A stretch of DNA of 53,115 nt from Perkinsus olseni (GCA_013115125.1 JABANN010000206.1:1-53115); one strand, 5' to 3'; positions 37,931-39,773 are shown, numbered from the stretch's first letter. Numbers and translations: made by a program. Notes: a model not told the origin generated them from the letters alone.

Positions 37931-39773
37931 ATGGCTACTAAGATGGATGCGGCTGCGATTAACGCAGCTGCAGTGACTAGGGATTACACCATTAATCCCC
38001 GTGTCGAGTATCAGACTATCACTGGTGTCGAGGTATTGCTTCAACCAGCGTCATCCAATAAATGGCTCTACGGTTTCCAGCGTATGCTATTTCGTCATTC
38101 CCCTTTTTTAGGGTCCTCTGGTTATCCTTGATAACGTGAAGTTCCCTCAGTACAATGAGATTGTCAACCTTACTTTGGCTGATGGCTCCACCAGACAGGG
38201 ACAGATTCTGGAAGTTAACGGTTCTAAGGCCGTCGTCCAGGTAATTCTCTTACCCATTTCCCCACCAACCCTCGTCTATTGCTGGCCCTTGTCTCATTCT
38301 TGTTGTTCAGGTCTTCGAGGGTACCAGCGGTGTCGATAACAAGAACTGCTACATCGAGCTTACGGGTGATACCCTTAAGATGCCCATGTCCGATGAGATC
38401 ATGGGCCGTTCCTTCAACGGTTCCGGTCAGCCCATCGATAAGGGTCCGCAGGTCTTGGCCGAGGAGTACTTGCCCATCAACGGTTCTCCCATCAACCCCA
38501 AGTCTCGTCAGTATCCTAAGGAGATGATTCAGACTGGTCTCTCTGCCCTTGATACCATGAACTCCGTGGTCCGTGGTCAGAAGTTGCCTTTGTTCTCCGC
38601 TGCCGGTCTTCCTCATAATGAGATCGCCGCCCAGGTGTGCCGTCAGGCCCAGCTTGTCCAGGGTAAAGATATTCACGATCACTCCAAGGAGAACTTCTCC
38701 ATCATCTTCGGTGCCATGGGTGCTAATATGGAGACTGCCCGATTCTTCCGTAACGATTTCGAGGAGAACGGTTCTATGGAGAATGTCGTCCTGTTCATGA
38801 ACCTCGCCAACGATCCCACTATCGAGCGTATTGTCACTCCTCGTTTCGTGCTTACCGCCGCCGAGTACTTCGCCTACGAGCGTGAGCAGCATGTCTTCGT
38901 CATCTTGACTGATATGTCTTCCTATGCTGATGCTCTTCGTGAGGTCTCTGCTGCCCGTGAGGAGGTCCCCGGCCGTCGTGGTTACCCCGGTTACATGTAA
39001 GTCTTGGGAGGCTTCGTCTCTTTAATAGATGCATTAGTAGTAGCACCTGATGATGAGAAATCATACTTCTCACTTAGTAATCTGAGTGCATTCAAAATGA
39101 AGATATCCGTGGTCATGCTAATCTGAGGGTGTTCATCTTCTCCTCCCCACCTCGTTTCGTGATGTCTTGTTGCCATTCACTTCTGCTGCTGTTCAGGTAT
39201 ACCGATCTTGCCACCATTTACGAGCGTGCTGGTCGTGTTGAAGGCCGTAACGGTTCTATCACCCAGTTCCCCATCCTTACCATGCCTAACGATGATATTA
39301 CTCATCCTATTCCCGATCTTACTGGTTACATTACTGAGGGTCAGGTGTTCGTCGATCGATCCCTTCACAACAGACAGGTGTATCCTCCGATTAACGTCTT
39401 GCCTTCTCTGTCCCGTTTGATGAAGTCCGGTATCGGCCGCGGTATGACTCGTGAGGATCATCCTAGTGTGTCCGATCAGCTTTACGCTAACTACGCCGTT
39501 GGTGTCGATACTCGTGCCATGAAGGCTGTCGTTGGTGAGGAGGCCCTTAGTGAGGAGGACCACTTGTACTTGGAGTTCTTGGATAAGTTCGAGTCCAAGT
39601 TCTTGAGCCAGGGTCCCTATGAGAACCGTGATATCTTCCAGTCTTTGGATATCGCCTGGGAGCTCTTGCGTCTCTTCCCCGAGACTATGCTCAAGAAGGT
39701 GCCCCAGAAGATCAAGGACAAGTACTATCCTCGTGATCGTGAGGCTCAGAAGGCCGCTCAGGAGTCCAAGTAA
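37931..39773 (+). CDS. ATP6V1B: V-type proton ATPase subunit B, 4 exons
   Basis: [62 protein letters not shown] and [15 protein letters not shown]. Introns at 38033-38111, 38241-38310 and 38997-39196; strong codon bias. Confidence 0.98.
39043..39132 (+). ncRNA. Intronic box C/D snoRNA (candidate U6 snRNA 2'-O-methylation guide)
   Basis: Box C ATGATGA 39050-39056, D' CTGA 39082-39085, C' ATGAAGA 39097-39103, box D CTGA 39123-39126 and terminal stem gcacct/gggtgt, inside a 200-nt intron. Guide ggtcatgctaat lies directly upstream of box D. Confidence 0.8.

Follow-up and report, generated by a model that had tools for sequence, protein, structure and literature searches.

Which RNA would be modified by a small nucleolar RNA (snoRNA) carried in an intron of a proton-pump gene of Perkinsus olseni? 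The question arises from a 53,115-nucleotide stretch of P. olseni DNA (GCA_013115125.1 JABANN010000206.1:1-53115, hereafter the window), for which a sequence-only reading had proposed that the third intron of the V-ATPase subunit B gene encodes a box C/D snoRNA with a guide complementary to U6 small nuclear RNA (snRNA), and that the base opposite the fifth nucleotide upstream of box D is the G of the U6 AGC triad. This G is part of the spliceosome's catalytic centre, and its 2'-O-methylation in human U6 has been known for decades. The element in intron 3 is confirmed here as a canonical intronic box C/D snoRNA, and comparison of its sequence with that of other RNAs makes U6 at the AGC-triad G (human G54) its probable target; the interpretation as a U6 guide is supported, not proven. 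The rationale for this statement is that the same class of D guide sits beside a second U6 guide in other eukaryotes, and the AGC-triad G of U6 is for this reason taken as the target.

The architecture of the element is that of a complete box C/D snoRNA. Boxes C, D', C' and D (ATGATGA, CTGA, ATGAAGA and CTGA), as originally proposed, were recovered both by reading and with a scanner, and they are closed by a terminal stem of 7 base pairs (bp), five Watson-Crick and two G-U, that is retained in the minimum-energy fold; the 6-bp stem described earlier is the inner part of this helix. The element occupies the sense strand, starting 45 nucleotides (nt) past the 5' splice site of intron 3 and ending 63 nt ahead of the 3' splice site. 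Scanning of the whole window on both strands returned this single site with a full box set and a stem of at least 6 bp, and when the window was dinucleotide-shuffled over its full length, one or more full sets arose in 3 of 200 cases (mean 0.015 per shuffle). A second C/D-like site at window positions 24076-24201 (+) was rejected as probably due to chance: it has a 6-bp stem and a 13-bit Rfam match, a D' and a C' box are missing, and open frames cover it on either strand.

The assignment of the host gene also held. The four V-ATPase B exons join into a stop-free translation of 497 codons (497 amino acids, aa), exon 3 shows 100% protein identity to the P. olseni vacuolar proton pump subunit B, and the junction 38996>39197, at which the 200 nt of intron 3 are skipped, is present in contigs from two runs, X18 (RNA) and X5 (kind not on record). 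Introns 1 and 2 measure 79 and 70 nt. Intron 3 is thus enlarged as had been claimed, by 2.5-2.9 times relative to the other two introns of this gene rather than to about four times the local size.

In run X4, labelled 'DNA?', two forms were observed over window positions 38892-39275 at near-equal depth (67.6 vs 68.5). One matches the window and retains the 200-nt intron unchanged, while the other departs from the window at 11 positions of the flanking exons and is missing exactly intron 3; the intron-less variant is expressed too, in RNA run X18. The two forms represent either presence and absence of the intron between alleles or a paralogue, and if X4 is DNA, the snoRNA is carried by one of the two alleles or paralogues only.

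Could the element nevertheless be non-functional, either a chance arrangement of boxes or a decaying intronic snoRNA copy? Expression evidence is lacking, in that the X18 and X5 contigs leave the intron uncovered (contigs cannot show absence), no Rfam family is matched at gathering score, the overall folding z-score is -0.94, and the second allele or paralogue is without the intron. Set against these points, all four boxes are intact, a full set is as rare in shuffled sequence as stated above, the element has the sense orientation and typical distance to the 3' splice site, and its guide and a further motif described below recur in snoRNAs from a green alga and from additional eukaryotes. We regard a non-functional element as very improbable.

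How well does the D guide fit U6? The U6 and 18S ribosomal RNA (rRNA) pieces compared were oligonucleotides printed in papers, namely a human U6 northern probe, a rice U6 probe, a mouse U6 reverse primer and a yeast 18S oligo. The U6 segment is the reverse complement of the human probe, to which the rice probe is identical across 25 shared letters, and U6 numbering is human, in agreement with the bases at all 11 modified positions compared against a review table. Measured against human- and rice-type U6, the guide-target duplex ending at box D, where at least 10 bp was looked for, comprises 12 bp (11 Watson-Crick and one G-U) between the D guide at 39111-39122 and U6 50-61, and 14 bp when the pairing is extended into the first two letters of box D. 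Its energy of -18.0 kcal/mol was equalled by 3 of 2000 guide shuffles, and U6 G54 lies opposite C39118, the nucleotide in fifth place upstream of box D. The pairing and the target base agree with those read originally from the DNA. A 10-bp match to small-subunit rRNA that had been noted as an alternative or dual target was also recovered with the yeast 18S oligo, at -11.5 kcal/mol and equalled by 60 of 2000 guide shuffles. The D' guide, for which no target had been named, gave no duplex above chance with U6 37-66, U6 66-85, the 5' part of U6, the yeast 18S oligo or a Haplosporidium primer (with U6 37-66, -8.4 kcal/mol, equalled by 194 of 2000 shuffles).

The evidence that carries the choice of U6 derives from snoRNAs of other organisms. 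Metagenome contigs were scanned with a pattern consisting of the core of box C, a spacer of 40-70, three positions left half-degenerate so as to admit the U6-type as well as the 18S-type extension, and the last nine guide letters followed by box D, and 19 loci were returned. Ten of these are chance matches, nine lying within stop-free frames of 246-798 aa and one (L003) being without a stem. The remaining nine loci are five distinct non-coding C/D snoRNA types, L002, L004, L006, L013 and the L005 type, with terminal stems of 4-9 bp in four of the five. Application of the same pattern to prokaryote genomes as a control gave nine matches, with stems of 2-4 bp and a longest identity to the U6 primer of 4-6 letters, and viral contigs gave no hits.

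Three features of the environmental types, a second guide, a YTTYTC motif and the base at guide position 11, were not set by the scan pattern. In four of the five types the D' side bears a second guide that is a perfect complement of U6 sequence within 68-80, inside the stretch 66-85 represented by the mouse primer, over 13 letters in L002 and in L013, 12 in L006 and 10 in L005; it is absent from the window and from L004. By count, this second guide would select U6 A70 if CAGA or CAUA is read as box D'. The YTTYTC motif stands 8-13 nt past box C in all six types (the window plus the five environmental types), in the window as CTTCTC after a 9-nt spacer. Its complement in U6 is 44-49, the positions immediately 5' of the D-guide target; for L004 and L005 this complementarity was computed on the U6 probe. 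The C-to-T changes in the motif of L002 and L013 retain pairing with U6 via G-U. YTTYTC was found in none of the ten chance metagenome loci and none of the nine prokaryote matches, and as a background it turns up in 80 of 3540 30-nt stretches taken from the window. CTTCTC probably forms an accessory helix with U6. Moreover, all six types have G at guide position 11 even though the scan pattern admitted T, a base that suits C60 of U6 rather than the A found in the 18S motif. The second U6 guide in four relatives, YTTYTC in six types and the G at position 11 thus support the proposal that the snoRNA is a U6 guide.

The host genes of the relatives differ, being SF3B4-like for L002 and SNF2-like for L004. 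The L002 host exon has its best match in the N-terminus of the human splicing factor SF3B4 (E 8.6e-16), so that a double U6 guide snoRNA is hosted by the gene of a spliceosome protein; for a 368-aa frame of L002 no named relative was found. L013 carries four head-to-tail copies of a double U6 guide within about 800 bases (1373-2173, +), a tandem snoRNA cluster. The D' guide of L004 (2645-2674, +) is unlike that of Perkinsus and unlike the double U6 guides, and may resemble a guide for a conserved 18S site. Beside the snoRNA locus of L017, positions 8394-10587 consist of long near-perfect tandem repeats with minus-strand open frames of up to 625 aa. In alignment A1 the terminal stems are out of register, and counting their pairs column by column was abandoned.

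Most C/D snoRNAs guide rRNA, and the 10-bp match raises the question of whether the snoRNA instead guides 18S alone, such that the longer U6 match is a by-product of a motif common to both RNAs. Among guides acting on this motif, snR53 and SnoR53Y are the best known, and they mainly target 18S. An 18S-only guide would leave unexplained the two extra G-C pairs formed with U6 alone, the second and purely U6 guide borne by relatives with the same D guide, and the match of YTTYTC to U6 44-49, adjoining the U6 target of the guide. We consider this explanation as improbable as that of a non-functional element.

A less remote alternative is a dual guide, in which the D guide would methylate both the U6 AGC-triad G and the 18S G of the shared 10-nt motif, in the manner of the snR53 family. 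Yeast 18S Am796 is made by snR53 (PMC5199042), and Arabidopsis 18S Am801, equated with yeast Am796, is assigned to AtsnoR53Y (PMC8583080), while RiboMeth-seq in Arabidopsis assigned U6 A48 to SnoR53Y (PMC8053127). Neurospora CD11, a 79-nt intronic homologue of snR53, is listed with one D' guide for 18S-Am793 (13/0) and U6-Am47 (11/0) (PMC2780460), and the extra U6 target was confirmed for the family in all fungi having it except Saccharomycetaceae (PMC5824354). These precedents, together with the 10-bp yeast 18S duplex, make a dual guide conceivable. However, the duplex with 18S falls short of that with U6 by 6.5 kcal/mol and has a G-U at its end, guide positions 11-12 (G, G) lie opposite A, A in the 18S oligo, and the yeast and Arabidopsis 18S tables, as far as available, give no Gm adjoining the snR53 site (PMC5199042, PMC8583080). 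The metagenome scan likewise gave no 18S-type snoRNA in the same register, since L009 and L019, which have an 18S-type extension, lie inside frames of 600 and 798 aa. A dual guide is unlikely in our estimation, and U6 alone is retained as the probable target.

The Perkinsus snoRNA also differs in several respects from the snR53, SnoR53Y and CD11 guides. Both have an antisense element on a motif common to 18S and U6, and both the Neurospora and the Perkinsus RNAs are intronic; for fungi the dual 18S and U6 targeting is a prediction, and in Arabidopsis both targets have been assigned. However, the element lies upstream of D' in the snR53 family and upstream of D in Perkinsus, and 18S pairing amounts to 13 bp in Neurospora vs 10 bp for the Perkinsus guide with the yeast 18S oligo. 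The base modified by the family is A (yeast 18S-A796, Arabidopsis 18S-A801, U6-A48), whereas the Perkinsus register points to the neighbouring G; 18S A796/A801 and U6 A48 would then be the A adjoining the G targeted here. Another comparable RNA is mgU6-53 (SNORD8 / SNORD9), which the review table lists as a box C/D guide with an AGC-triad target and which pairs with the same U6 segment; by description it targets human Am53, and the Perkinsus register is one base off, on G (54).

Is a guide already known for the AGC-triad G? The 2'-O-methylated sites of human U6 are A47, A53, G54, C60, C62, C63, A70 and C77 (PMC8599867, PMC5855946, PMC7960923), so that G54 is, as the sequence-only reading had it, a known modified position. 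The table of a 2021 review lists guides for A47, A53, C60, C62 and C77 and is blank for Gm54, Cm63 and Am70, and a literature search on U6 snRNA Gm54 returned, by title, no report of a guide. Human Am70 has more recently (2025) been tied to the D' element of SNORD23 by chimeric enhanced crosslinking and immunoprecipitation (eCLIP). The same site is predicted for the second guide of the environmental types; this A70 guide is not in the Perkinsus snoRNA, and SNORD23 is not among the Rfam matches obtained by E-value for the window, L013, L006 and L018. A U6 methylation guide is a known kind of RNA, and its predicted target site here is one for which no assigned guide was found.

Comparison with Rfam, which had been suggested as a check, gave no match on the window at gathering score. 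With E up to 10, nine weak matches to the snoRNA element were obtained, all to C/D or small Cajal body-specific RNA (scaRNA) families and all below gathering score; seven of the nine cover the snoRNA end to end on the + strand, and no U6-guide family is among them. The top matches are snoR38 at 20.2 bits (gathering 45) and plant snoR26 (RF01286) at 18.3 bits (gathering 47; E 0.85). The latter spans the full length, and Arabidopsis SnoR26 is assigned to U6 C63 (PMC8053127), but in the alignment as printed there is no match in the guide columns. Among the metagenome loci, nothing reached gathering score in the 16 of 19 that were scanned; the other three were omitted as chance matches, of which L012 and L016 repeat the stretch matched in L001 and L019 is a near copy of L009. 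Scans by E-value of the L013, L006 and L018 snoRNAs returned one weak generic C/D match (SNORD96, E 0.92, L018). By these scores the snoRNA is predicted to belong to a family absent from Rfam.

Several observations weigh against U6 as the target and should be considered together. The complementarity rests on human, mouse and rice U6 oligos, not on Perkinsus U6; guide position 10 forms a G-U wobble with human-type U6, positions 13 and 15 are unpaired with it, and the 18S motif, too, can pair with this guide along 10 bp. The D guide and box D shared with the five environmental types are not independent evidence, as these hits were retrieved with a pattern made from the same guide (the shared YTTYTC is independent), and the Perkinsus snoRNA has no counterpart of the second U6 guide, which in four of the five relatives backs the assignment to U6. 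Perkinsus and L004 instead have unrelated D' guides with a canonical CTGA, in contrast to the second U6 guide of the other four types. Arabidopsis has eight U6 sites (U27, A43, A48, C57, C63, A65, G75 and G84), and in the available part of that report there is no methylated G beside A48, so that methylation of the G54 type would not be universal (PMC8053127). The X18 and X5 contigs span the spliced exons only, and run X19 yielded none at the locus. The absence of the intron from the second allele or paralogue (X4) suggests that the snoRNA copy is dispensable at that locus.

One further observation, unexplained by pairing with U6, is that CGT at guide positions 15-13 is common to the window, L004, L005 and L006. 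Window positions 39107-39128 and L004 2689-2710 are identical over 22 nt between Perkinsus and a Coccomyxa-like green alga, an identity that extends four bases past the part pairing with human-type U6 and exceeds what U6 pairing requires. Both observations could indicate a genuine C/D snoRNA with another target, such as 28S, another snRNA, a spliced-leader RNA, a tRNA or an mRNA, or one that dispenses with methylation or works through the D' guide, an orphan that comes with canonical D' and C' boxes and found no partner among the pieces tested. Since the U6 match is already strong, a different target appears quite improbable to us, if not to the degree of an 18S-only guide.

Table 1 Features of the V-ATPase B locus in the window and of the environmental snoRNA types
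Feature	Coordinates	Strand	Terminal stem	Basis or remark
V-ATPase subunit B host gene, 4 exons	37931..39773	+		open frame and protein identity
V-ATPase B exons	37931-38032, 38112-38240, 38311-38996, 39197-39773	+		joined translation
Intron 3, 200 nt, GT..AG	38997..39196	+		exact skip in contigs of runs X18, X5
Predicted box C/D snoRNA, ~92 nt	39042..39133	+		full box set and stem
Terminal stem, 5' strand	39042..39048	+		pairs with 39127-39133
Box C, ATGATGA	39050..39056	+		reading and scanner
CTTCTC motif, proposed accessory pairing with U6 44-49	39066..39071	+		YTTYTC comparison
D' guide, orphan	39071..39081	+		no above-chance duplex with tested pieces
Box D', CTGA	39082..39085	+		reading and scanner
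Box C', ATGAAGA, one mismatch to consensus	39097..39103	+		reading and scanner
D guide; C39118 = fifth base upstream of D	39111..39122	+		U6 pairing
Box D, CTGA	39123..39126	+		reading and scanner
Terminal stem, 3' strand	39127..39133	+		pairs with 39042-39048
Environmental type L002	4430-4506	-	9 bp	intron after SF3B4-like exon 4590-4751 (-)
Environmental type L013			6-9 bp	four tandem copies
Environmental type L006			7 bp	
Environmental type L005 = L014 = L015 = L017 = L018			2 bp (scanner), 3 by eye	
Environmental type L004			4 bp	intron of SNF2-like gene, 93% identical to Coccomyxa subellipsoidea

How would such a snoRNA act on U6? Under the favoured reading, once the V-ATPase B intron has been spliced out, exonucleases would trim it as far as the terminal stem and the core proteins bound there. 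The snoRNA freed in this way would accumulate as a stable RNA and would assemble with fibrillarin, Nop56, Nop58 and Snu13. The D guide at 39111-39122 would pair with positions 50-61 of a Perkinsus U6 that matches the human-type sequence, placing G54 opposite the fifth guide base, and fibrillarin would 2'-O-methylate the AGC-triad G. The CTTCTC downstream of box C would probably add a short helix with U6 44-49, the 3' half of the ACAGAGA-box region. C/D snoRNAs often make extra pairs near the methylation site (PMC8053127).

We hypothesize further, with confidence that falls somewhat short of even, that the snoRNA may be a member of an old, widespread and uncatalogued family of U6-dedicated C/D snoRNAs, whose hosts would include at least one alveolate and one green alga. 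The family would guide methylation of the AGC-triad G (for which the guide is unassigned in humans) and would carry an accessory element acting on the flank of the ACAGAGA box. The older form of this family may have been a double G54/A70 guide, the second guide of which may have been swapped in Perkinsus and in the Coccomyxa-like alga, and the Perkinsus intron would be missing from one allele or paralogue.

If the U6 reading is wrong, an ordinary intronic snoRNA remains. If it is true, this would be the first described snRNA-modification guide in Perkinsus, as judged by paper titles, none of which in a literature search on Perkinsus snoRNAs concerned snRNA-modification guides. Besides this alveolate, which parasitizes molluscs, a green alga and further microbial eukaryotes would share the guide, in most of them coupled to a second U6 guide, and a canonical guide of this kind would provide a way to remove the modification of the AGC-triad G and ask what its function is.

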